Part shown: positions 578-29,735 of the stretch, piece after piece | Position numbering within the stretch: the first letter of the stretch is position 1 | How the letters are laid out: each line of letters opens with the position of its first letter | NCBI GenBank assembly: GCA_964460615.1 | Contig: CAYWPX010000001.1 | Coordinates: forward strand, 120,073 to 184,072 | DNA from: an uncultured Planctomycetia bacterium | GTDB lineage: Bacteria > Omnitrophota > Gorgyraeia > CAYWPX01 | Direction of reading: 5' to 3' | Length of the DNA stretch: 64,000 nucleotides | The notes under the pieces: generated by a model | The model's input: only the letters and a program-made list of their open reading frames with translations | Databases searched by the model: none | What the model was told of the DNA's origin: nothing | Program-made: the position numbers and the translations under genes

Positions 578-1342
578 ATGGAAAAGATCTCATTAAGTGT
601 TGTAGTGCTTACCAGAAACGAGGAGGACAATATAGCAAGATGCCTCAAAAGCGCGTCTTTTGCCGATGAGGTGATAGTGGTGGATGACGGTAGCACAGAC
701 AAGACTATCGAAATTGCCTCCAAGCTTGCCACAAAAATAGTAGAGAGAAAAATGGATGTCGAAGGTACTCACAGAAATTATGCTTATTCATTAGCCAAGA
801 ATAAATGGGTGCTCAGCCTTGACGCTGATGAAGAGATCAGTGTTGATCTAAAAAATGAAATAATCGAGACTCTTTCCAAGGAAACACCGCATGTTGTTTT
901 TTCCATGCCTATTAAAACTTATATTGGAAAGAGATGGATACAGCATGGCGGGTGGTATCCGGCAGGCAAAGACAGGCTTTTTCTTAAGGGCGAATTTAAG
1001 TACGAAGATGTAGGAGTGCACCCAAGGCCGATTTATAAAGGTACCTGCGGGCATCTTACAAAAGATATAGTCCATTATTCTTACAATGATTTTCATGATT
1101 TTTTTGTAAGCCTTAATAATCAGACTACCCAGGAAGCAAAAAAATGGATCCAGGACAAGCGAAAGATCAACGGCCCTAAAATATTTTATAAAATGTTTGA
1201 AAGGTTTTTTAAGTCATTTTTTCTTAAGAAAGGCTACAAGGATGGGTTATTGGGATTTATGGTCTCGTATTCAGGCAGCCTTTATCAATTATATACCTAT
1301 GCAAAGTACTGGGAAATGAAGAGTAATATGGAGAACAAATAA
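578..1342 (+). CDS. glycosyltransferase family 2
   Basis: N-terminal LSVVVLTRNEEDNIARCL...VIVVDDGSTDKT is the classic GT2 signature; stop overlaps next start (TAATG). Confidence 0.85.
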   Translation: MEKISLSVVVLTRNEEDNIARCLKSASFADEVIVVDDGSTDKTIEIASKLATKIVERKMDVEGTHRNYAYSLAKNKWVLSLDADEEISVDLKNEIIETLSKETPHVVFSMPIKTYIGKRWIQHGGWYPAGKDRLFLKGEFKYEDVGVHPRPIYKGTCGHLTKDIVHYSYNDFHDFFVSLNNQTTQEAKKWIQDKRKINGPKIFYKMFERFFKSFFLKKGYKDGLLGFMVSYSGSLYQLYTYAKYWEMKSNMENK

Positions 1343-3051
1343 TGAAAATTCTCGGAATAGGCGCACCGTTCTTTTTGCATGATCCGGCAAGTGCCTTAAT
1401 AATAGATGGTGAGGTTGTTGCGGCTGTAGAAGAAGAGAGATTTAACCGCAAAAAACATGCTATTGGGTGTTTATCTGTTGAGTCAACCAAGTTTTGTCTG
1501 AAAAAAGCTGGTATTAAACCAAGTGATGTTGAAGTTGTTGCATTCCCTTGGTCAGCCAAAGCATACTTTATGGGGATGTGGCCGCACTTTTTTGACACAT
1601 TGAAAGATGAGCCGTCAAGAGCGTTTAAGGGAATAAAAAACTTTACTAAAAAGAAGAAGGAGATTTCAACAAAACTTAAAATGACCCTTAAGGGCGCCGG
1701 TATTGATCCTGATAAAGTTGAAATCAGGTATGTTGAACACCACTTGGCGCATGCTTCAAGCGCTTATCATCTTTCGGGATTCAAGGATTCGGCTATTATG
1801 ACCATGGATGGATCCGGTGAATTTGCTACGACTGTATTTTGGGAGGGAGTGAACGGAAAAATAAGAAAAATAAAAGAGTTCTATCTTCCCAATTCCTTGG
1901 GGAGGTTTTATTCGACAGTTACTGCATATCTGGGTTTTCAGGCAAATGACGGGGAATATAAGTTGATGGGCATGGCGCCGTACGGTGATCCATCAAAAGT
2001 AGATATATCCAAAGTTATTTCGTATGATAAGGCAGGCTACAAAACCAATCCTGATTATGTCTGGGTAACCAGATCCAGGAGATATGATGTAAATAATATT
2101 TTTTCCAAACACATGGTCAAGATGTGGGGCCCGCCAAGGACCGGTGATGGGCTTACGGAGCCGTATATCCATATTGCTGCAGCTACTCAGAAAACTCTTG
2201 AGGATGTAACACTAGGCCTTATTGATACATATCTTGGCGATATTCTTAAGAAGAATGGCGGGAATCTCTCTTTTGCAGGAGGTTGCGCTTTAAATGTAAG
2301 TCTGAACAGAAAACTCCTTGGCCATCCGCTTATAAAACATCTATACGTTCAGCCTGCTTCAAGCGATGCCGGCACTCCTCTAGGGGCGGCTACATATGTA
2401 GCAAGCGAACTCGGAGAAAAGCTTAAGCCAATGACTCATGTATACCTTGGCCCCAGCTACACAAATGATGAGATAAAAAAAGAGCTTGATAAGATAAAAG
2501 TAAAATATACCTATCACGAAGATATAGAAGAGGTAACCGCCCAGCTGCTTAGCCAGGGCCAGATAGTAGCATGGTTCCAGGGGGAGATGGAGTATGGCCC
2601 AAGAGCCCTTGGCAATCGTTCTATACTGGGGAATCCTACAACCAAAGGCGTAAGTGACAGGATCAATGAGATAATAAAGTTCCGTGAGAACTGGAGGCCT
2701 TTCTGTCCGTCAATGCTTCCTGAATACGCAAAAGAGATCCTTGATTCGGATCATCCGGCACTTCACATGACTTTAAGCTTTAAGATAAGCGATAAATGGA
2801 AATCAAAGATACCCGAAGCGGTGCATGTAGACGGCACAATAAGACCGCAGGTGGTAGACCCTAAAACAAATCCCAAATACTACAAGCTTTTAAGCATCTT
2901 CAATAAAAAAACAGGAATACCTGTATTAATAAATACATCTTTGAATAGACGCGGCGAGCCAATGGTATGCTCCCCCAAGGATGCGATCAATATGTTCTAT
3001 GGAAGCGGTTTAGAGAACCTGGTAATGGGTAATTATTTATTGAGGAAGTAG
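1342..3051 (+). CDS. carbamoyltransferase, NodU/CmcH family (paralog 1)
   Basis: 569 aa; MKILGIGAPFFLHDPASALIIDGEVVAAVEEERFNR N-terminus and HHLAHASSAYHLSGF motif typical of NodU/CmcH O-carbamoyltransferases; SD GGAGAA upstream. Confidence 0.85.
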   Translation: MKILGIGAPFFLHDPASALIIDGEVVAAVEEERFNRKKHAIGCLSVESTKFCLKKAGIKPSDVEVVAFPWSAKAYFMGMWPHFFDTLKDEPSRAFKGIKNFTKKKKEISTKLKMTLKGAGIDPDKVEIRYVEHHLAHASSAYHLSGFKDSAIMTMDGSGEFATTVFWEGVNGKIRKIKEFYLPNSLGRFYSTVTAYLGFQANDGEYKLMGMAPYGDPSKVDISKVISYDKAGYKTNPDYVWVTRSRRYDVNNIFSKHMVKMWGPPRTGDGLTEPYIHIAAATQKTLEDVTLGLIDTYLGDILKKNGGNLSFAGGCALNVSLNRKLLGHPLIKHLYVQPASSDAGTPLGAATYVASELGEKLKPMTHVYLGPSYTNDEIKKELDKIKVKYTYHEDIEEVTAQLLSQGQIVAWFQGEMEYGPRALGNRSILGNPTTKGVSDRINEIIKFRENWRPFCPSMLPEYAKEILDSDHPALHMTLSFKISDKWKSKIPEAVHVDGTIRPQVVDPKTNPKYYKLLSIFNKKTGIPVLINTSLNRRGEPMVCSPKDAINMFYGSGLENLVMGNYLLRK

Positions 3052-3123: not shown

Positions 3124-3202
3124 GCACACACTTCGGGATAATTCGCACCTATAACTTAGTTTCCCATCGGGTCACCTAAGTTATGTGCTCATTAAGGAAA
3201 TA

Positions 3203-4909
3203 ATGATTATATTAGGAGTTGGAACACCTTTTTCGCATGACCCAGGAGCAGCGCTTTTGATCGATGGTGAGTTGATAGCCGCGGCTGATGAAGAGCGTTT
3301 TTCCAGGAATAAACACGCCATAAACGAATTCCCTGTTAAATCCATAAAATTTTGTCTCGCCAAAGCCGGCATCAAAGCAAGCGATGTTGAGATAGTGGCA
3401 TATCCCTGGAGCTATGCTGCCTACGAAGGAAAGATGTGGGATTTTTTTAAAAGAACCTGGTTAAGCAGGCCGAGCGATGCTTTTAAGTCTATTATAAAGG
3501 CTAAATCAAGGCATAAAGATAAGATTAAAAGACTGAATAATATCCTTTCCAGTTCAGGTATAAATCCCGATAAAGTAAAAAAATATTTTGTAGAACACCA
3601 CTTGGCGCATGCTTCAAGCGCTTACCATCTTTCGGGATTCAAGGATTCGGCTATTATGACCATGGATGCTGCCGGCGAATTTACATCAACGATGTTTGCC
3701 GAGGGTAAAGAAGGAAAGATAGCTAAAATTAAAGAATTTATATATCCGGACTCATTGGGGATGTTTTATTCGGTAGTTACAGAATATCTCGGTTTTGAGA
3801 TCAATGACGGGGAATATAAAGTAATGGGTATGGCGCCTTACGGCAATCCTGAAAAAGTGGATTTCAGTGATGTTATTAAATTTGATAAATCTGCTTACCA
3901 TGTGAATGATTTATTCACCTATTCAAGAAAAAGACATCGATATGAATCCGGCAAAATGTTCTCCAAACACATGGTCAAGATGTGGGGCCCGCCAAGGACC
4001 GGTGATGGGCTTACGGAGCCGTATATCCATATTGCTGCAGCTACTCAGAAAACTCTTGAGGATGTAACACTAGGCCTTATTGATACATATCTTGGCGATA
4101 TTCTTAAGAAGAATGGCGGGAATCTCTCTTTTGCAGGAGGTTGCGCTTTAAATGTAAGTCTGAACAGAAAACTCCTTGGCCATCCGCTTATAAAACATCT
4201 ATACGTTCAGCCTGCTTCAAGCGATGCCGGCACTCCTCTAGGGGCGGCTACATATGTAGCAAGCGAACTCGGAGAAAAGCTTAAGCCAATGACTCATGTA
4301 TACCTTGGCCCCAGCTACACAAATGATGAGATAAAAAAAGAGCTTGATAAGATAAAAGTAAAATATACCTATCACGAAGATATAGAAGAGGTAACCGCCC
4401 AGCTGCTTAGCCAGGGCCAGATAGTAGCATGGTTCCAGGGGGAGATGGAGTATGGCCCAAGAGCCCTTGGCAATCGTTCTATACTGGGGAATCCTACAAC
4501 CAAAGGCGTAAGTGACAGGATCAATGAGATAATAAAGTTCCGTGAGAACTGGAGGCCTTTCTGTCCGTCAATGCTTCCTGAATACGCAAAAGAGATCCTT
4601 GATTCGGATCATCCGGCACTTCACATGACTTTAAGCTTTAAGATAAGCGATAAATGGAAATCAAAGATACCCGAAGCGGTGCATGTAGACGGCACAATAA
4701 GACCGCAGGTGGTAGACCCTAAAACAAATCCCAAATACTACAAGCTTTTAAGCATCTTCAATAAAAAAACAGGAATACCTGTATTAATAAATACATCTTT
4801 GAATAGACGCGGCGAGCCAATGGTATGCTCCCCCAAGGATGCGATCAATATGTTCTATGGAAGCGGTTTAGAGAACCTGGTAATGGGTAATTATTTATTG
4901 AGGAAATAG
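3203..4909 (+). CDS. carbamoyltransferase, NodU/CmcH family (paralog 2)
   Basis: N-terminus MIILGVGTPFSHDPGAALLIDGE aligns with paralog 1; last ~315 aa identical to paralog 1. ORF track starts at GTG 3185; ATG 3203 chosen by alignment with paralog 1. Confidence 0.85.
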   Translation: MIILGVGTPFSHDPGAALLIDGELIAAADEERFSRNKHAINEFPVKSIKFCLAKAGIKASDVEIVAYPWSYAAYEGKMWDFFKRTWLSRPSDAFKSIIKAKSRHKDKIKRLNNILSSSGINPDKVKKYFVEHHLAHASSAYHLSGFKDSAIMTMDAAGEFTSTMFAEGKEGKIAKIKEFIYPDSLGMFYSVVTEYLGFEINDGEYKVMGMAPYGNPEKVDFSDVIKFDKSAYHVNDLFTYSRKRHRYESGKMFSKHMVKMWGPPRTGDGLTEPYIHIAAATQKTLEDVTLGLIDTYLGDILKKNGGNLSFAGGCALNVSLNRKLLGHPLIKHLYVQPASSDAGTPLGAATYVASELGEKLKPMTHVYLGPSYTNDEIKKELDKIKVKYTYHEDIEEVTAQLLSQGQIVAWFQGEMEYGPRALGNRSILGNPTTKGVSDRINEIIKFRENWRPFCPSMLPEYAKEILDSDHPALHMTLSFKISDKWKSKIPEAVHVDGTIRPQVVDPKTNPKYYKLLSIFNKKTGIPVLINTSLNRRGEPMVCSPKDAINMFYGSGLENLVMGNYLLRK

Positions 4910-13523: not shown

Positions 13524-14450
13524 GTGAGAATAGTATTTTTCGGTACATCGGGGTTTAGTGTAAGGGCGCTCAAAGAACTTCTGAAAAGTTCTCATGAGAT
13601 AGTAGCCGTTGTTACCAGGCCCGACATAAAAAGCGGCAGGTTTTTGAAAGTCTCTGAAAATCCCGTCAAGATCTTTTCCAAAAATAACAACCTTAAAATA
13701 TTCCAATTTGCGAAGCTTGATGATGACGCGGCGGCCAAACTTAATGAGCTTAGGCCCGACCTATTTGTAGTAGTCTCTTACGGTAGAATACTTACAAAGG
13801 ATTTTTTGTCTATCCCTAGGTTGTATTCAGTGAACCTCCATGCTTCGCTTTTGCCAAAATACCGGGGTGCCGGGCCTATCAACTGGGCCATTATAAACGG
13901 GGAGAAGACGACTGGGGCTACGGTTATGAAGATGAATGAACTGATGGATGAAGGGGATATTATTTCCAGTGTGGAAGTTCCTATCGATGAAAAAGATAAT
14001 TCTATTACCCTGTCGGATAAAATTGCCGAGGCGGGCAGCATGCTATTGGTTGATACTTGTGATAAGATAGCCGGTAACGCTGATATCAAATTTGTTTCGC
14101 AGGATCAAGTACTTGCTACGATCGCGCCCAAACTGAAAAAGAGCGACGGGTTTATTGACTGGAATAAGGATGCGTATGAGATAAGCAATCTGGTAAGGGG
14201 GCTATTACCATGGCCATGCGCTTATACTCATTATAAAGGAAAGCTTTTAAAGGTATTCGACGCTGTGCCGGTACCTATAGGTACTGAATTCAAGAATGGA
14301 GAAGTTGTCGAATCAGGCCCCAAAGGGATTTTAATAAAATGCGCCAAAGACGGTTTATTGATAAGAGAGTTACAGCTTGAAGGAAAAAAAAGGATGTCAT
14401 CAAAAGACTTTTTAATAGGTAACAAGGTGGCTCCCGGTGATATGTTTTGA
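13524..14450 (+). CDS. fmt: methionyl-tRNA formyltransferase
   Basis: MRIVFFGTSGFSV..., SYGRIL, NLHASLLPKYRGAGPINWAII motifs; GTG start with AAGGAG SD. Confidence 0.9.
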   Translation: MRIVFFGTSGFSVRALKELLKSSHEIVAVVTRPDIKSGRFLKVSENPVKIFSKNNNLKIFQFAKLDDDAAAKLNELRPDLFVVVSYGRILTKDFLSIPRLYSVNLHASLLPKYRGAGPINWAIINGEKTTGATVMKMNELMDEGDIISSVEVPIDEKDNSITLSDKIAEAGSMLLVDTCDKIAGNADIKFVSQDQVLATIAPKLKKSDGFIDWNKDAYEISNLVRGLLPWPCAYTHYKGKLLKVFDAVPVPIGTEFKNGEVVESGPKGILIKCAKDGLLIRELQLEGKKRMSSKDFLIGNKVAPGDMF

Positions 14451-14504: not shown

Positions 14505-15809
14505 ATGATTAAAAATGTTGCTCCGAGAGAACTTATACAAAGCGATTTCCAAATCCTAAAATCCGCAGAAAGGCTCAATACAACTCCTGAAATTGAAGAT
14601 ATAATCTTCATGCAATCTCTGGAGGGCCGTGCCCATAATGGTGCGGGTGCTTTTCATAAGAGGTCCTATGTCAACACCTCTATAGATGATATAGTAAAGG
14701 CATTAGGCAGAAACCCCGCTTTGATCAAGTCGAAGCGCCAAGCGCTCATTGACGATATAGTCGATTATGCGAAAGCGATTATTAATGGAGAGCGCCGTGA
14801 CATGCTTATTAATGATAAAGGCTCCCCTTTTCTCGGTATCCCTGACTTTAAGACTCGTAAGGTTAATCCGCATGATATTCTTAAGGGCCTTTTTATGGGT
14901 GGCCTGAGGGATGATGCTGAGATACGTAAAACTACCGAATATAAATATAATGTCAAAGTCGGTTGCGGAAAATGCTATTTAGTCAACGCCAGGATCATGG
15001 AAAGCTTGGGCCTTGACGGTGAAATTTTAGCGCATCAGGCGCATGAGGATGATATAGAGACTTATGTGGCCAATGGTTTGATAATCAATCCCGAAAGGCT
15101 TTACGAAGCCCATGAGGATGAGATAAAATATTTTTATATAAGGCACAGAATCGGGCCCGGTCAATCTGATGATGCGGCTGTTGTGGCTAGCGGGATGATA
15201 TATAATTCCGATGTTGCTATCGGCGTATTTCTGGCTGACGCGATCGATACCCTGGAAAAGTATGCACCGAATTATTCAGACCAGGATAATGACCTTGCTT
15301 GTTATATTAAAGAAAATTATGATGCTCTTGATATCTCTTATGATGAGGTTTATGAGCTGGCTTATTTAGCGGCTATACCCGAAGGAAGAGAGGAAGAGGT
15401 TCCGGATAGTTCTATGAGGTATCTATTAACAGTCGATCCGGTAACTGGACAATCGACCATTGAAAGCCATCTGAATTTTGTAGAAGGCAGGCCGTATTAT
15501 CCTATGGCGATCAGCTATAAGAGGATCCTGATAACAGATTTTTATGATTATATAAAAGACAAGGTAAGGCGTTCCAAGGTCCCTTCCGAGAGTGAGCCAA
15601 AGGAACTTTTGATCGAGGGTTTGAATAAATCCGTAAAAGAATTAATGAAAAAGAATGTGGTAGTTGTTTCCCCGAACGTGACTCTGGAGGAAGCGCTAAG
15701 CAAGGTAAGGGATACAAGAGTTGAGATAATTGTTGTGCAGGATGCTAATAAAAAAGTTATCGGAGTTATTAATCCGGATGATTTTTTATATTTACTTAGG
15801 AGAACCTGA
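14505..15809 (+). CDS. hypothetical protein with C-terminal CBS domain
   Basis: 434 aa; N-terminal ~370 aa unrecognised; C-terminus VVVVSPNVTLEEALSKVRDTRVEIIVVQDANKKVIGVINPDDFL is CBS-like. Confidence 0.6.
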   Translation: MIKNVAPRELIQSDFQILKSAERLNTTPEIEDIIFMQSLEGRAHNGAGAFHKRSYVNTSIDDIVKALGRNPALIKSKRQALIDDIVDYAKAIINGERRDMLINDKGSPFLGIPDFKTRKVNPHDILKGLFMGGLRDDAEIRKTTEYKYNVKVGCGKCYLVNARIMESLGLDGEILAHQAHEDDIETYVANGLIINPERLYEAHEDEIKYFYIRHRIGPGQSDDAAVVASGMIYNSDVAIGVFLADAIDTLEKYAPNYSDQDNDLACYIKENYDALDISYDEVYELAYLAAIPEGREEEVPDSSMRYLLTVDPVTGQSTIESHLNFVEGRPYYPMAISYKRILITDFYDYIKDKVRRSKVPSESEPKELLIEGLNKSVKELMKKNVVVVSPNVTLEEALSKVRDTRVEIIVVQDANKKVIGVINPDDFLYLLRRT

Positions 15810-15812
15810 TTT

Positions 15813-16829
15813 ATGCCCGAGTTAAGAAAAGATCCTGTGGTAGGCAGATGGGTTATTATAGCAACCGAGCGCGCCAAAAGGCCTCAGGATTTTTCAAAAG
15901 AAGATTCAAATATTGACGATTCAGCATGTCCTTTCTGCGAGGGGAAAGAGGCATTGACCCCGCATGAGATTTTTTCATTAAGGAGCCAAGGAAATACGCC
16001 CGGATGGGATGTAAGGGTAGTTCCCAGCATCAATCCGCTTTTAGTTATTGAAGGTAAACTCAATAGGCGGCCAAAAGGCATGTATGATCTTATGGATGCT
16101 ATTGGCGCACATGAAATAGTGGTAGAAACCCCTAAACATATACACAACATGGCTGATCTTGAAGAGTCACAGATAGTAAAGGTATTTGATGTTTACCTTA
16201 ATAGGTTATCGGACTTGGAGAAAGACCATAGGTTTAAGTATGTTCTGATTTTCAAGAATTACGGGGTTGCCGCAGGGGCCGGGCCGATAAAACATTCCAG
16301 AAGCCAGCTTATTGCTACCCCGGTTAACCCAAAAAGAGTAAAAGAAGAGCTGATGGGTTCAAGGCGCTATTTTGAATATAAAGAGAGATGTGTATTCTGC
16401 GATATTATCAGGCAGGAGATAGCGGATGAGAGCAGGGTTGTTTTGGAGTCGGAAGAGTTCGTTGTGATCGCGCCGTTCGCTTCGAGATTTCCCTTTGAGC
16501 TTAATATCCTTCCTAAGAAACATTCGGCTGATTTTACAAAGATCAGCCACTCAGAGAAACTGGATCTTGCCAGGGTGCTTAAAAATACTCTGATGAAACT
16601 CAAGATCGCTCTCAATGACCCTCCTTATAATTTTGTACTTCATTCTGCTCCTTTCAGGGGATCAAGAAAACAGGGCTATTGGAAGACGGTTGACAGCGAT
16701 TATCATTGGCATATCGAAATAATGCCCAGACTTACAAGCGTAGCTGGGTTTGAATGGGGATCGGGGGTTTATATTAACCCGACTCCTCCTGAAGAAGCTG
16801 CTAAATACCTTAAGGAATTGGGGATTTAA
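15813..16829 (+). CDS. GalT-like HIT-superfamily nucleotidyltransferase/phosphorylase paralog 1 (active-site variant HSRSQ)
   Basis: CPFCEG zinc motif, second CVFCDII motif, YHWHIEI; canonical H-P-H-x-Q replaced by H-S-R-S-Q. Confidence 0.8.
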   Translation: MPELRKDPVVGRWVIIATERAKRPQDFSKEDSNIDDSACPFCEGKEALTPHEIFSLRSQGNTPGWDVRVVPSINPLLVIEGKLNRRPKGMYDLMDAIGAHEIVVETPKHIHNMADLEESQIVKVFDVYLNRLSDLEKDHRFKYVLIFKNYGVAAGAGPIKHSRSQLIATPVNPKRVKEELMGSRRYFEYKERCVFCDIIRQEIADESRVVLESEEFVVIAPFASRFPFELNILPKKHSADFTKISHSEKLDLARVLKNTLMKLKIALNDPPYNFVLHSAPFRGSRKQGYWKTVDSDYHWHIEIMPRLTSVAGFEWGSGVYINPTPPEEAAKYLKELGI

Positions 16830-16951
16830 ATGTCTTAGGGGATGAATCCCGTAAGACTATTATTGCAGGATCATAGGTTTTTTTGGATTAAATCAGCATA
16901 AGGGATATAAACAGTTTTATAAAAGCTATAATTTTATAGGAGTCTTACGGG

Positions 16952-17968
16952 ATGAATCAGTTAAGACGTGACGTTGTTACCGGCAGATGGATAATAATAA
17001 ATGTTGATGAAGATCAGACTCATTTTGATTTCTTGACTGAGCAGAGAGAGAAAAAAGGCGGGACATGCCCCTTTTGTCCCGGCAATGAAAGAATGACCTC
17101 GCATGAAATAACTGCATACGGAAGAAAAGCATATGTCCCAAATTCAGCAGATTGGACCTTGAGGGTGGTCCCAAATAAATTCCCGGCGCTAAAAATTGAA
17201 GGCGAGATAGGTAAGATCGGCGTAGGGCTTTATGATATGTCTAACGGCATAGGTGCGCATGAAGTTATAGTTGAATCTCCGGATCATAATAAGGAATTAT
17301 CAGATCTTGACATAGAAAGAGTTGAGGATGTTATCTGGTCTTATAGTGACAGATCTTTGGATCTTAGGAAAGACCCCAGATTTAAATATATACTGATCTT
17401 CAAAAATTACGGAGAACCGGCGGGGGCATCCTTAGAGCATCCGCATTCACAGGTTATCGCGCTTCCAATAGTCCCCAGCCGCGTAACTGACGAGCTGGAG
17501 GGTGCAAAAAAATATTTCGATTATAAAGAGAGATGTATCTTTTGCGATATTATTCATCAGGATATGCAGGATAAAGAACTCATTGTTACCGACAATGAGC
17601 ATTTTTTGTCATTCTGCCCTTTTGTTCCGAGATTCCCATATGAGACATGGATAATACCAAAACAGCATTCACCTGATTTTGGCTACATAACAAAAACCGA
17701 AGTCGAGAGTTTAGCCAAGATACTTAAAGAGACGCTTCAAAGAATAAAAAATCTGTTGCAAGATCCTTCATATAACTTTATAATCCATACTGAGCCTCTT
17801 AATGGCGAGGGTTCTATGTATAAGGAAAGTTACCATTGGCACATTGAAATAATCCCAAGGCTGACCAAAACAGCGGGGTTTGAATGGGGAAGCGGGTTTT
17901 ATATAAACCCGATCTCTCCTGAATATGCGGCTAAGACGTTGAGAGATGTTAAGCTGCTGAAAGAATAA
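16952..17968 (+). CDS. GalT-like HIT-superfamily nucleotidyltransferase (galactose-1-phosphate uridylyltransferase family) paralog 2
   Basis: CPFCPG, canonical EHPHSQ active-site motif, CIFCDII, YHWHIEI. Confidence 0.8.
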   Translation: MNQLRRDVVTGRWIIINVDEDQTHFDFLTEQREKKGGTCPFCPGNERMTSHEITAYGRKAYVPNSADWTLRVVPNKFPALKIEGEIGKIGVGLYDMSNGIGAHEVIVESPDHNKELSDLDIERVEDVIWSYSDRSLDLRKDPRFKYILIFKNYGEPAGASLEHPHSQVIALPIVPSRVTDELEGAKKYFDYKERCIFCDIIHQDMQDKELIVTDNEHFLSFCPFVPRFPYETWIIPKQHSPDFGYITKTEVESLAKILKETLQRIKNLLQDPSYNFIIHTEPLNGEGSMYKESYHWHIEIIPRLTKTAGFEWGSGFYINPISPEYAAKTLRDVKLLKE

Positions 17969-18048: not shown

Positions 18049-19083
<1,035 letters not shown>

Positions 19084-19360: not shown

Positions 19361-20347
19361 ATGAAAAAAGAAGAAAAAAAGATCATGAATGAAGAGAGCC
19401 AGCTTTTTTCAGAGCTAGGCGAAAGCCCATATCAGAGGTTTAAAGAGGCATTTGCGCTGATGTCTATTATACCGCTTCTTGGGTTTTTCTACATTCTGGT
19501 AGGGAAGCTTTTTTCGCTCTCCATACTTGAAGGTGAGATAGGCTTTATACTGTTCATTATAATTATTTTAACCGTATTTGGGTTTCTTTTTTCGTATTCA
19601 GTGATCAAGAAACTCCTGAGGCATTTAGTTAAATATTCCATTAAGCTTAAAAAATATGACAGCGCTAAATCTGAATTTGTGGCAAAATTTTCTCACGAAG
19701 TATTATCTCCGCTTGCTATAATAAAGATAAATATGTCCAATATAATGGACGGCATTATGGGGCCGGTCAATGACCCGACAAATAAATCTTTGGGAGAATG
19801 CCAGAAGTGCGTTGTTAGGATTGAGAAACTTGTTACCAATATGTTGGATCTCTCCAAAATAGAATCCGGCCGACTTGAGCTATCAAGATCTCTCGTTGAT
19901 CTTACCAAGCTTGTGAATGAAGAGGTCACCACTGCGAAGGCGCTTGCCTTAAAAAAGAATATCGCGCTTAATTCCGATCTTGCCGGTAAGGCAATTTTTA
20001 TCTGGGGGGACATAGATAGGCTTAGAGAGGTATTATTGAACCTTATAGATAACGCTATTAAATATACTCCTGAAAATGGAACAATTAAGATCAAGCTGTT
20101 TGAGGAAGACTCTAAGGTGATCCTTGAAGTCAGCGATACAGGTCCCGGTATTGAGGCAGACAAGCTAGATAAGGTATTTGATAAATTTTCTAATGTATCC
20201 TCAAAAGAAGGCCATGGGCTTGGTTTATCCATTACAAGAGACATAATAGATCTTCATCGCGGCAGGATATGGGTGGAGAGTGTAGTAGGGAAAGGGACCA
20301 ATTTTTTTGTATTGTTCCCCAAGGATCTTAGAGTTGTGCGCAGATAG
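19361..20347 (+). CDS. sensor histidine kinase (two TM helices, HisKA, HATPase_c)
   Basis: H-box FSHEVLSPL, N-box LLNLIDNAIKYT, G-box DTGPGI...GLGLSI; no response regulator nearby; alternative start at 19385. Confidence 0.8.
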   Translation: MKKEEKKIMNEESQLFSELGESPYQRFKEAFALMSIIPLLGFFYILVGKLFSLSILEGEIGFILFIIIILTVFGFLFSYSVIKKLLRHLVKYSIKLKKYDSAKSEFVAKFSHEVLSPLAIIKINMSNIMDGIMGPVNDPTNKSLGECQKCVVRIEKLVTNMLDLSKIESGRLELSRSLVDLTKLVNEEVTTAKALALKKNIALNSDLAGKAIFIWGDIDRLREVLLNLIDNAIKYTPENGTIKIKLFEEDSKVILEVSDTGPGIEADKLDKVFDKFSNVSSKEGHGLGLSITRDIIDLHRGRIWVESVVGKGTNFFVLFPKDLRVVRR

Positions 20348-20446: not shown

Positions 20447-21634
20447 ATGAACAAGAAAACCATAAAAGATATCGATATTAAAGGTAAAAGGGTCCTTATC
20501 AGGGTTGATTTCAACGTTCCGTTTGAAAAAGGGACTACCAAGATCAGCGATGACACAAGGATCGTAGGGGCTTTGCCTACCATCAAATATGCCATAGAAA
20601 AAGGTGCGAAGGTTGTCCTCATGAGCCATTTAGGCAGGCCTGACGGCATGGTAAAGGAGGAATTGAGATTGGCGCCTGTAGCTAAAAGGCTTTCTGAATT
20701 ACTTGAAAGGCCTGTAATAGCCGCCAAAGATTGCATCGGTGAAGAAGTCAAAAAACAGGTTGCATCCATGAAAAATGGAGATGTGATCCTTCTTGAAAAT
20801 TTAAGATTCCATAAGGAAGAAGAGGAGAATGACCCGAATTTTGCAAAAGAATTATCATTGCTCGGTGATGTTTATGTGAATGACGCTTTTGGCACTGCTC
20901 ATAGGGCGCATGCTTCTACAGAAGGTGTTACAAAATATTTACCCGGTGTTGCCGGTTTTTTAATAGAAAAAGAGATTGAGTACCTTGGGAATGCCCTTAA
21001 TAATCCCAAAAGGCCGTTTGTAGCGATACTCGGCGGAGCAAAGGTATCGGATAAGATAGGCGTTATAAAAAATCTTTGGGGAAAAGTCGACAAGATAATT
21101 GTCGGCGGTGCAATGGCATATACCTTTATGAAGGCTACCGGCCAAAATGTCGGAGCCTCAAAAGTTGAAGCAGATAAACTTGATATTGCAAAAAACATCC
21201 TTGAGGAAGCCAAAAAAAGAAACGTCGAGCTGCTATTGCCGGTAGATCATATTATGGCTGATAAGTTTGACAAAAACGCCAATACGGAAATTTCAAGCGG
21301 TGTTAATATCAAAGACGGCTGGCTTGGTTTAGATATAGGCCCAAAGACCGTAAAGCTTTTTTCTGATGCGTTAGTCGGGGCAAAAACAGTTGTGTGGAAC
21401 GGGCCTATGGGCGTATTTGAGATGGATAAGTTTGATAAAGGGTCCCTTGGAGTTGCCCAGGCGGTAGTAAATTCTAAAGCAGTATCAATAATAGGCGGCG
21501 GCGATACGGCTTCATGTATAGCCAAATTTGGTTTAACAGATAAGATGTCGCATATATCCACTGGCGGAGGCGCAAGCCTTGAGTATATGGAAGGAAGAGT
21601 ACTTCCTGGTATAGCGGCATTACAGGATAAATAA
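20447..21634 (+). CDS. pgk: phosphoglycerate kinase
   Basis: RVDFNVP, MSHLGRP, GGGASLE motifs; 395 aa. Confidence 0.95.
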
Positions 21635-21652: not shown

Positions 21653-22429
21653 TTGATAATGAAAAGACGTCCGATAATTGCTGGTAATTGGAAGATGAAT
21701 AAGATCATTGTTGAAGCGATTGAGCTTGCCAATGGTCTAAAAAGAAATTTGTATAAGATCGAGAATGTAGATATAGTTATCTGCCCGACATTTACCGCTC
21801 TGGCGGAGGTCGGGGAGATCGTGCTGGATTCTAATATACAACTCGGCGGGCAGAATATGTACTTTGCCGATACGGGTGCTTTTACCGGAGAGATCTCTCC
21901 TATCATGCTCAAAGATGCCGGGTGTGAATATGTGATAATAGGCCATTCCGAAAGAAGGGCATATTTTGGCGAAACGAACGAAATGGTTAACAAAAAAGTC
22001 ATGTATGCCATAGAAAGAGGCCTTAAGCCTATTATGTGTGTCGGAGAGAAGCTTGAGGAAAGAGAGTCAGGAAAAACTTTTGATGTTGTCGGTGAACATG
22101 TCAGGGAAGGTTTAAAAGGCATATCGAATGAGGATATATTGGAAGTTACAATTGCATATGAACCTGTCTGGGCGATAGGGACGGGTAAGACCGCAACGCC
22201 CCAGCAAGCCGAGGAAGTACATGTTTTTATAAGAAATATTTTAGCTGAGCTTTACGGTAAGGAGATCGGGGATTCAATTCGTATTCAATACGGCGGTAGC
22301 GTTACAGCCGAAAATATAAAGGAGCTCATAAGCCAGCCTAATATAGACGGCGCATTGGTTGGAGGCGCCAGCTTGAAGGTGGATACTTTTACGACAATCG
22401 TTGAAGCAGCTTCACAAGTGAAAGGATAG
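21653..22429 (+). CDS. tpiA: triosephosphate isomerase
   Basis: IIAGNWKMN, IIGHSERR, AYEPVWAIGTG, QYGGS motifs; TTG 21653 or ATG 21659 start. Confidence 0.95.
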   Translation: MIMKRRPIIAGNWKMNKIIVEAIELANGLKRNLYKIENVDIVICPTFTALAEVGEIVLDSNIQLGGQNMYFADTGAFTGEISPIMLKDAGCEYVIIGHSERRAYFGETNEMVNKKVMYAIERGLKPIMCVGEKLEERESGKTFDVVGEHVREGLKGISNEDILEVTIAYEPVWAIGTGKTATPQQAEEVHVFIRNILAELYGKEIGDSIRIQYGGSVTAENIKELISQPNIDGALVGGASLKVDTFTTIVEAASQVKG

Positions 22430-28397: not shown

Positions 28398-28508
28398 ATT
28401 TTACTCATTTCAACCCAGATTAAATTTCAGTTATTATAATGTAATTTGGGTTCACTGCCAACAACCTGAAACCCATAATGGGTTTTTCGTGGCAGCCTTT
28501 TGAAGTTT

Positions 28509-29735
28509 ATGAAAAATCTACTGACTTTTATAATGGCAGGCGGTAAAGGCGAAAGGCTTTATCCTTTAACTAAGGATAGGGCGAAGCCTGCTGTGCCGTT
28601 TGGCGGAGTATATAGGATAATAGATTTTACTCTTTCCAATTGCATCAATTCAGGGATCAGGAAGATCCATATACTTACTCAGTATAAATCGATCTCTTTA
28701 GAGCGTCATATTAGATCAGGATGGATGATCTTTGAGTCGGAATTGGGAGAATTTGTTGATATTATTCCCGCACAGCAGAGAGTTGATGATCACTGGTATC
28801 AGGGAACGGCAGATTCAATATATCAGAATATTTATTCGATAGAGATGGAAAAACCCGATCATGTGTTAATACTGGCAGGCGACCATGTCTATAAGATGGA
28901 CTACTCTAAGATGCTAGAGTTCCATATGAATAAGGGTGCCGATATAACTTTAGGCGTTGTTGAGATGCCTATTGAAAGAGTCAAGGATTTCGGTATCGTT
29001 GAGGTCGATCCCAATTTTAAAGTCCACGGTTTTGAGGAGAAACCCAATACACCTAAGACAATACCTGATGACTCCAAAAAAGCCTATGTTTCAATGGGGA
29101 TATATATATTTTCGAAAGAATTTCTGATAACCTCGCTTATAGAGGATGCTAAAGACAAGTCTTCAAACCATGATTTCGGGAGAAATATTGTACCTCTAGC
29201 CATTAAAAATGGCGCAAAGGTTTATGCTTATAATTTTAAAGATGAGAACAAAAAAGAGGCAAAGTACTGGAGGGATATAGGCAGTATAGATGCCTATTTT
29301 GAGGCAAATATTGACCTTATATCGGTTTCTCCGATTTTTAATTTATATGATAAGGATTGGCCGATCAGGACATACCAGGAACAGTATCCGCCTGCAAAAT
29401 TTGTTTTTGCTCAGACCGACAAAGAGGGTGGTAGGCGCGGTATAGCATTGGATTCGTTGATATCGCATGGTTCTATACTTTCTGGAGGCAGGGTTTATAG
29501 GTCTGTGCTTTCTCCGAACGTAAGGACAAACAGTTTTTCTGTAGTTGAGGACTCGGTATTACTGGAAGGCGTTGAGGTTGGCAGGCACGCCAAAATAAGG
29601 CGCGCCATTATTGATAAAGACGTCATAATACCTCCGAAGACGGAGATTGGTTATAACTTAGAAGAGGATAGGAAAAGATTTCACGTTACGGAATCCGGGA
29701 TCGTTGTCGTAGCAAAGGGGACAGAGATAAAATAG
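28509..29735 (+). CDS. glgC: glucose-1-phosphate adenylyltransferase
   Basis: MAGGKGERLYPLTKDRAKPAVPFGG N-terminal motif; start set at ATG 28509 (track begins at TTG 28500). Confidence 0.9.
   Translation: MKNLLTFIMAGGKGERLYPLTKDRAKPAVPFGGVYRIIDFTLSNCINSGIRKIHILTQYKSISLERHIRSGWMIFESELGEFVDIIPAQQRVDDHWYQGTADSIYQNIYSIEMEKPDHVLILAGDHVYKMDYSKMLEFHMNKGADITLGVVEMPIERVKDFGIVEVDPNFKVHGFEEKPNTPKTIPDDSKKAYVSMGIYIFSKEFLITSLIEDAKDKSSNHDFGRNIVPLAIKNGAKVYAYNFKDENKKEAKYWRDIGSIDAYFEANIDLISVSPIFNLYDKDWPIRTYQEQYPPAKFVFAQTDKEGGRRGIALDSLISHGSILSGGRVYRSVLSPNVRTNSFSVVEDSVLLEGVEVGRHAKIRRAIIDKDVIIPPKTEIGYNLEEDRKRFHVTESGIVVVAKGTEIK

Follow-up and report, generated by a model that had tools for sequence, protein, structure and literature searches.

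Two adjacent GalT-family paralogs with complementary losses of active-site residues in an Omnitrophota genome: candidate subunits of an obligate heterodimer

Why would a bacterium keep, next to an apparently complete enzyme of the GalT (galactose-1-phosphate uridylyltransferase) family, a second member of the same family in which the catalytic histidine is replaced? The question is raised by a 64,000-nucleotide stretch of contig CAYWPX010000001.1 (hereafter, the window) from an uncultured bacterium of the Omnitrophota, in which three open reading frames (ORFs) follow one another on the + strand: protein A of 434 amino acids (14505-15809), protein B of 338 amino acids (15813-16829) and protein C, also of 338 amino acids (16952-17968). 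A and B are separated by 3 nt, B and C by a spacer of 122 nt (16830-16951, + strand, read directly in the sequence), and C is followed after 107 nt by the gene gap. These coordinates, the lengths of the proteins and the 3-nt gap are exactly those of a first-pass annotation made from the DNA letters, in which the locus was described as a gene for a CBS-domain protein followed by two GalT-like paralogs. The reading that we consider probable, judging from the sequences, is that B and C together make up a nucleotidyltransferase or phosphorylase of the GalT family that is an obligate heterodimer with one working active site, in which C, with its complete set of own-chain catalytic residues, would be the catalytic subunit, and B would be a non-catalytic subunit supplying residues in trans.

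Membership of B and C in the GalT family, proposed in the first-pass annotation on the basis of zinc and HIT-like motifs, was borne out by sequence comparison. Aligned from end to end, the two proteins show 46% identity (E 4e-115), and both half-domains of the family, PF01087 and PF02744, were recognized along the full length of each of them, with E values of 4e-10 and 1e-13 in B and of 2e-17 and 3e-14 in C; the NCBIfam model TIGR00209 scored 122.9 bits for B and 133 bits for C at a cut-off of 102.1. For the comparison of individual residues, species-representative genomes were scanned with protein A, which gave 80 loci, nearly all of them from Omnitrophota; the B and C orthologs from the 53 loci with complete A, B and C were aligned with E. 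coli GalT and read at the GalT active-site positions (the motif residues of the E. coli sequence used agree with the printed alignment of 1hxp). The zinc ligands (C52, C55, H115 and H164 in E. coli) are kept in 53/53 B and 53/53 C orthologs. The best solved relative of both proteins is Arabidopsis At5g18200 (1z84; E 9e-70 for B and 2e-71 for C), followed by the archaeal GalT 6k5z (E about 1e-36 to 1e-39) and by E. coli GalT (E about 1e-25), so that, by E value, At5g18200 and not a GalT is their closest characterised homolog. This plant protein is reportedly an ADP-glucose phosphorylase acting via a His186-AMP intermediate.

The replacement of the nucleophile in B, which was the central claim of the first-pass annotation, withstood closer inspection. 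The loop H-P-H-S-Q of C (residues 163-167; 17438-17452, + strand) contains the zinc-ligand histidine and the nucleophile His165, while the loop H-S-R-S-Q of B (residues 161-165; 16293-16307, + strand) keeps the zinc-ligand His161 and has Arg163 instead of the nucleophile; the former loop had been located correctly, and the range given earlier for the latter, 16290-16307, was one codon too long. Arg163 aligns with His186 of At5g18200 and His166 of E. coli GalT. The possibility that the arginine had been misaligned and that an intact H-x-H motif was present was rejected, since Arg163 falls at the nucleophile position both in the HMMER alignments to 1z84 and in the MAFFT alignment that includes E. 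coli GalT. Among the 120 closest homologs of B the motif is H-x-R-S-Q in 112 and H-x-K-S-Q in 2, and in the species-level B orthologs the nucleophile position is occupied by Arg (40/53) or His (13/53) and by nothing else. In C orthologs the nucleophile His is present in 53/53, and every one examined has the motif H-x-H-S/T-Q. A sequencing error or a decaying duplicate was also rejected as an explanation, because the arginine is conserved and B is conserved as much as C: pairwise identity between orthologs averages 0.575 in B, 0.584 in C and 0.550 in A, and B is therefore under the same purifying selection as its intact paralog. Nor was His supported as the ancestral state of B. In neighbour-joining bootstrap trees rooted between B and C, the B sequences were monophyletic in 60/60 replicates, and parsimony placed Arg at the B root in 60/60 replicates, with 2-3 reversions to His, a result that is provisional given the simplicity of the method.

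About 20 B orthologs forming a deep clade differ from the others in two further respects. Their second metal site is altered as well, with Tyr instead of the His equivalent to E. coli H296 and Gln instead of the Glu equivalent to H298, and an insertion of 2-3 residues precedes the H-x-R-S-Q loop (the loci of the clade being L035, L040-L044, L046-L051, L053, L055, L056, L059, L065, L069-L072, L074 and L075). B has therefore drifted further in this clade, its C partners staying canonical.

The substitution of the nucleophile is one part of a broader pattern, in which the two paralogs have lost complementary sets of residues. In GalT both chains contribute residues to the hexose-1-phosphate site; the contacts to UDP-glucose in the E. 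coli enzyme include R28, R31, G159 and S161, and human Arg48, the counterpart of E. coli R28, lies on the chain opposite to Gln188, human Arg51 corresponding to E. coli R31 (PMC5081055). The arginines directed to the partner chain (trans) are present in B, whose residues 19-24 read E-R-A-K-R-P (15867-15884, + strand), R20 and R23 aligning with E. coli R28 and R31. Both are absent from C, whose residues 20-23 at these positions (E. coli R28 to R31) are E-D-Q-T (17009-17020, + strand), with E20 and T23 in place of the arginines. Each of the two arginines was found in 53/53 B orthologs, within a motif E-R-x-K/R-R-P that matches the RAKRP of E. coli GalT and At5g18200, while the 53 C orthologs include K in 20, R in 10, N in 9 and S in 5 at the R28 position, and N in 10, L in 8, G in 7 and R in 5 at the R31 position. 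Residues contacting the nucleotide from the own chain (cis) show the opposite distribution. The motif N77-D78-F79 of E. coli is represented by N-K-F in C (residues 75-77; 17174-17182, + strand) and by S-I-N in B (residues 72-74; 16026-16034, + strand). At the position of N77, Asn is present in 53/53 C orthologs and Ser in 48/53 B orthologs; at that of F79, Phe is present in 51/53 C and the residue is variable in B; and at that of S161, a phosphate contact, Ser is present in 52/53 C, and G, A or S in B. The intervening D78 position is occupied by K in 52/53 C orthologs. Other cis residues are common to both paralogs, namely the substrate contact at the position of G159 (Gly in 50/53 B and 53/53 C) and the residues of the hexose-phosphate half, N153 and Q168 (N149 and Q165 in B), which are 100% kept in B and C; in C each of the cis residues is conserved in at least 96% of the orthologs. 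Thus, the own-chain contacts N77, F79 and S161 are kept in C and degenerate in B, the partner-directed arginines are kept in B and degenerate in C, and the single-gene relatives, At5g18200 (RAKRP, N-x-Y, HSHSQ) and E. coli GalT, keep both sets. Read by these residues, B of the window belongs to the family structurally and not catalytically and should not be filed as a GalT enzyme, and C appears to pass every catalytic-residue test except that of the trans arginines.

In every locus holding both genes, C came directly after B on the same strand; this was so in 55 loci found through A, in 3 loci found through B that lack A, and in 3 metagenome loci, and the contig of a fourth metagenome locus (L160) has room for B only. 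The branching of the two clades is visibly similar. At L167 (1-395), an NAD-dependent epimerase/dehydratase gene near an Omnitrophota fmt-B-C locus carries an intein, recognized by the Pfam family Intein_splicing in the 799-aa product.

A scheme accounting for this pattern may be proposed as follows. Each active site of a GalT-family dimer consists of a cis set and a trans set. To the cis set belong the H-x-H loop, which is held by zinc and bears the nucleophile His, the N-x-F motif contacting the nucleotide, and the Ser and Gly that contact phosphate; the trans set is made up of the arginines of the N-terminal R-A-K-R-P motif and of the G-F-E loop in the C-terminal part. Following an ancient duplication, the cis set would have been retained in C, whose trans arginines decayed, and B would have held the trans arginines invariant while its cis nucleotide subsite decayed (Arg replacing His, Ser replacing Asn, and both Phe and Ser disappearing). 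As each paralog retains what the other has lost, only a B:C dimer would assemble a complete site, made of the cis residues of C and the trans residues of B. That the two proteins associate physically is what we infer from the patterns of residues and how they are conserved, from gene adjacency and from family membership, and the active/inactive heterodimer that had been called plausible in the first-pass annotation gains in credibility from the complementary loss of cis residues in B and trans residues in C.

The second site of such a dimer, combining the cis residues of B with the trans residues of C, could not form a nucleotidyl-enzyme. It would still have the hexose-phosphate half (equivalents of E. 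coli N153 and Q168, and the F-E loop of the partner), together with basic residues gained at positions 160 and 163 of B. The residue preceding the zinc-ligand His (B 160, E. coli P163) is Arg or Lys in 49/53 B orthologs and Glu in 51/53 C orthologs. Hints that the B pocket may still bind hexose phosphate or another anion come from the conservation of the loop, from N149 and Q165, which B has retained, and from R/K160 and R163, which are newly fixed, and probably the second site serves as a binding or regulatory pocket for an anionic ligand. Another function suggested earlier for B, phosphorylase-like catalysis in its own site, is unlikely, because the nucleotide subsite of B is degenerate as a whole.

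As for the reaction carried out by the complete site, the similarity to At5g18200, the closest solved relative, is the reason to read it as that of a nucleoside diphosphate (NDP)-hexose phosphorylase or transferase: most likely, NDP-hexose and phosphate (or hexose-1-phosphate) would be converted to hexose-1-phosphate and NDP (or NDP-hexose), through a nucleoside monophosphate carried by His165 of C. ADP-glucose is the best guess for the substrate by homology, UDP-hexoses being possible too. The window contains, 10.5 kb 3' of the B-C pair, a gene for glucose-1-phosphate adenylyltransferase, glgC (28500-29735, + strand; NCBIfam NF001947 E 1.2e-178, 594 bits at a cut-off of 470, Pfam agreeing), so the organism can make ADP-glucose, which we regard as context only.

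Several observations speak against the proposed heterodimer or limit its scope. The C-terminal trans loop A-G-F-E-W-G-S-G (E. coli Y316 and E317) is fully conserved in both B and C, so that the asymmetry between the paralogs is one of the arginine pair and of the cis residues and does not extend to all trans residues. At the position of E. coli Q323 it is C that is more conserved (Y in 53/53) than B (Y in 34, H in 18). Lys or Arg is present at the R28 position in 30/53 C orthologs, which makes a weakly active C homodimer conceivable, and the 13 B orthologs with His at the nucleophile position indicate that the B site may not be inert in every lineage. The NCBIfam model and the public annotation of orthologs name both B and C galactose-1-phosphate uridylyltransferase, the proposed substrate following the nearest characterised homolog only. 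Finally, the importance of R28 and R31 was derived from the complex of the E. coli enzyme with UDP-glucose, and these contacts are absent in the human uridylyl-enzyme complex (PMC5081055).

Some of the same facts could be accommodated by two independent homodimers, C being an ordinary enzyme of the GalT or ADP-glucose-phosphorylase type, and B being either a binder of sugar phosphates or nucleotide sugars, acting as a sensor or regulator, or an enzyme with a new chemistry that dispenses with the covalent His intermediate. The strong conservation of B, which includes invariant residues of its own (T18, R20, R23, E43, S72, K177, R282 and W290), would fit such an independent role. So would the restriction of the nucleophile position in B to Arg or His, suggestive of a functional basic side chain, and the complete retention of the hexose-phosphate residues N149 and Q165. 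However, the arginines of R-A-K-R-P, which are substrate contacts in E. coli GalT, would be missing from a C:C dimer, and the pocket served by the invariant trans arginines of a B:B dimer would have no nucleotide contacts; besides, neither the strict adjacency of B and C in every locus nor the mirror-image loss is predicted by this explanation, which we accordingly hold to be unlikely in comparison with the B:C heterodimer.

The first gene of the three raises a question of its own, namely whether A belongs to the same functional unit. In the search against Pfam and NCBIfam, protein A gave nothing but CBS-type matches above the cut-off, the single CBS motif occupying residues 377-431 (15633-15797, + strand; Pfam E 1.9e-10) and forming one beta-alpha-beta-beta-alpha unit in the predicted structure. 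The CBS motif noticed in the first-pass annotation is thus real, while the binding of adenine nucleotides attributed to it was an assumption: the protein carries one motif, both by Pfam and in the model, and not the tandem pair of a Bateman module, and a Bateman-like unit would require dimerisation of A. The N-terminal domain (residues 1 to ~360; 14505-15584, + strand), which had been described as unrecognised, remained so, as no significant sequence or fold match to a named family or a solved structure was obtained and the A-family profile found nothing significant among PDB sequences. Two PDB matches, Certhrax with the A profile (E 0.02) and cholix toxin with the sequence of A itself (E 0.9), were far from significance and were dismissed as chance; the matched stretches lie outside the ADP-ribosyltransferase catalytic domains of these toxins. 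A match to the Pfam family DUF6432 (E 0.01, below the cut-off) was dismissed too. The AlphaFold2 model built on a 57-sequence alignment has a mean predicted local distance difference test score (pLDDT) of 91.4 and a predicted template modelling score of 0.81; in the N-terminal domain pLDDT is mostly 95-99, falling to 85-90 around residues 191-210, and the linker 361-376 is disordered. By this model, the domain may represent a new fold. Near-invariant residues of the family (D136, R141, G155, R213, G217, G219, D222, D223, D245, D248, T249, K252, D261, S303, R305, H322 and Y347) resemble a site of catalysis or ligand binding, which may accommodate a metal and a phosphate group, and weakly suggest that A is an enzyme acting on a phosphorylated or nucleotide metabolite.

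The family of A is large. The homologs of A found number 724 and are named Omnitrophota, and an exhaustive HMMER search collected 232 clusters (at 50% identity) with E<=1e-3, 48 of them with E<=1e-30. Omnitrophota, Caldisericia, WOR-3, UBP18, Woesearchaeota and Nanoarchaeota contribute the named members, all of which are annotated as hypothetical proteins; on 57 diverse members, Pfam detected no family besides CBS, and CBS itself in only 7/57. We read the CBS motif as an addition acquired by A in Omnitrophota. A is, thus, a widespread family of several uncultured bacterial phyla and DPANN archaea and a candidate for structural and functional discovery.

That A, B and C form one module, in which A would be an upstream enzyme (for instance, one making or using hexose-1-phosphate or an NDP-sugar) or a regulatory subunit, and its CBS motif would sense adenine nucleotides and tune B:C beside gap-pgk-tpi, agrees with several of these features: the order A-B-C in 55 of the 70 A loci with enough downstream DNA, the short same-strand gaps, of which the one between A and B is 3 nt in the window, the rarity of the CBS motif in the family at large, and the enzyme-like invariant Asp, Arg, Lys and His of A. 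The three genes do recur together elsewhere, in line with the uncharacterised sugar-nucleotide module suggested in the first-pass annotation, but A is not an obligate part of the set. Among the same 70 loci, A stands directly before gap, without B and C, in 10 (A-B at a contig end accounts for 1 and other arrangements for 4), and the three loci reached through B all have the order fmt-B-C-gap-pgk-tpi without A. Outside Omnitrophota, no GalT genes were seen near A-family genes in the loci examined, and the contexts there, in Caldisericia, WOR-3, UBP18 and DPANN, are unrelated: between rex and holB-PSP1 in Caldisericia-type loci, after dnaE, or near a macro-domain gene in UBP18. Nor is one CBS motif by itself an established sensor of nucleotides. 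B-C is, therefore, a tight unit, the place between fmt and gap may be taken by A alone, by B-C alone or by the two together, and A is a frequent and separable neighbour, probably co-transcribed with B-C and only loosely tied to it. A three-protein module is, in our estimation, improbable.

Still less probable, though worth formulating, is a more far-reaching picture built on the B:C heterodimer. According to it, the degenerate site of B together with the trans loop of C (N149, Q165, the F-E loop, R/K160 and R163) would be an allosteric pocket for hexose phosphate or another anion, A would represent a CBS-gated enzyme class of new fold that, with B:C, routes ADP-glucose or glycogen carbon into gap-pgk-tpi, and the A family would be a missing enzyme of central metabolism in small-genome anaerobes (Omnitrophota, Caldisericota, WOR-3 and DPANN archaea).

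Two features of the A-family loci outside Omnitrophota may be recorded here. In Caldisericia/WOR-3-type loci the A-family gene lies directly 5' of holB-PSP1, rex often preceding it, and this adjacency recurs in three different upstream contexts (rex upstream in L092, L094-L097, L099, L102 and L121; holB downstream in L101, L113, L164 and others). The position before holB is commonly that of tmk in other bacteria; replacement of tmk by A was considered, and nothing beyond gene position supports it. In loci L054, L058, L062 and L066, from MAGs (metagenome-assembled genomes) of the UBP18 type, CBS-bearing A homologs of 440 aa have in their vicinity a macro-domain protein and a conserved protein of 117 aa; HAD-type hydrolases come next, and no GalT-like genes lie nearby.

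The notion that B and C are ordinary Leloir-pathway galactose-1-phosphate uridylyltransferases, the arginine of B being unimportant drift in a redundant duplicate, accords with the scores of both proteins above the TIGR00209 cut-off and with the names of orthologs in the source records, but we consider it highly improbable, since B has lost the nucleotidyl-carrying residue and three nucleotide contacts and yet is conserved like C, no galK or galE was found among the scanned ORFs of the window (those of at least 150 aa at positions 12-41668, the scan ending at 41.7 kb), and the closest solved relative is not E. coli or human GalT but At5g18200, which reportedly has no GalT activity.

The neighbourhood of the three genes is conserved on both sides. 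Upstream lies fmt for methionyl-tRNA formyltransferase (13524-14450, + strand), in a synteny priA-fmt-A-B-C, with a TPR-repeat gene on the minus strand between priA and fmt in the window. Downstream, gap (GAPDH; 18076-19083, + strand) is followed by a histidine kinase gene, pgk (20447-21634), tpi (21653-22429) and secG. The histidine kinase gene (19361-20347), whose product has HisKA and HATPase_c domains and predicted N-terminal membrane helices, separates gap from pgk; in related loci where both were detected these two are nearly always directly adjacent, except for L045, with ~0.9 kb between them. GC content is flat along the window at ~40% and therefore gives no sign of foreign DNA, and the names carried by the closest homologs assign the window to a MAG of the phylum Omnitrophota. 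A defence or phage origin was rejected, PADLOC and PHROGs having given no meaningful matches. A search for intergenic terminators between A, B and C gave no convincing match, and no Rfam families were found anywhere in the window. The beginning of the B-C spacer, 16832-16857, is an imperfect palindrome, GTCTTAGGGGATGAATCCCGTAAGAC, and a near-copy of GTCTTACGGGATGAATCAGTTAAGAC (16942-16967), which comprises the ribosome-binding site and start codon of C; this element looks like a vestigial duplicate of the 5' end of C or like a hairpin able to affect the translational coupling of B and C. At a distance from the locus, tandem carbamoyltransferase paralogs of the NodU/CmcH type (1342-3051, 569 aa, and 3185-4909, 574 aa) are encoded amid GT2 glycosyltransferase and methyltransferase genes, and this region is probably a glycan-modification cluster.

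B, as its residues indicate, cannot carry out GalT chemistry, and C probably cannot do so alone; reconstructions of metabolism in which Omnitrophota are credited with two GalT enzymes are therefore wrong. As a heterodimer, the pair would be a natural example of subfunctionalisation within a shared active site, where the keeping of one half by each paralog locks the genes together, and a system in which to ask how pseudoenzyme subunits arise and whether dead sites turn regulatory. A full-text literature search found no description of such a split pair in the HIT/GalT superfamily.

Among the known systems, At5g18200 (PDB 1Z84, 1ZWJ, 2H39) is the nearest to B and C, sharing with them the two-half HIT fold, the CPFC zinc motif and the second Cys-x-x-Cys site, and having an H-S-H-S-Q loop to which the loops of B and C correspond. 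It differs in being the product of one gene with RAKRP and the full cis set, so that a homodimer of it has two complete sites, the sets being split here over two genes. E. coli and human GalT (1HXP, 1GUP, 5IN3) belong to the same family and are dimers with active sites shared between the chains; their His166 (186 in human), zinc ligands, Gln168 and trans Arg28/Arg31 map cleanly onto B and C. In contrast to the proposed pair, they are homodimers with two equivalent sites acting on UDP-hexose, their similarity to B and C is much lower than that of At5g18200 (E about 1e-25), and B would be without the covalent intermediate. An analogy from outside the family is offered by trypanosomatid S-adenosylmethionine decarboxylase and its 'prozyme' paralog, an enzyme-pseudoenzyme heterodimer with shared active sites. 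There, too, a paralog without catalytic residues is retained since the active unit is a mixed dimer; the fold is unrelated, and in B:C both partners, not one, have lost something. As for A, its C-terminus matches, in sequence and predicted fold, the CBS motif known from IMPDH, CBS-pyrophosphatase and the AMPK gamma subunit, but in those proteins the motifs are paired in Bateman modules, and in A one motif is attached to a catalytic-looking domain of unmatched fold.

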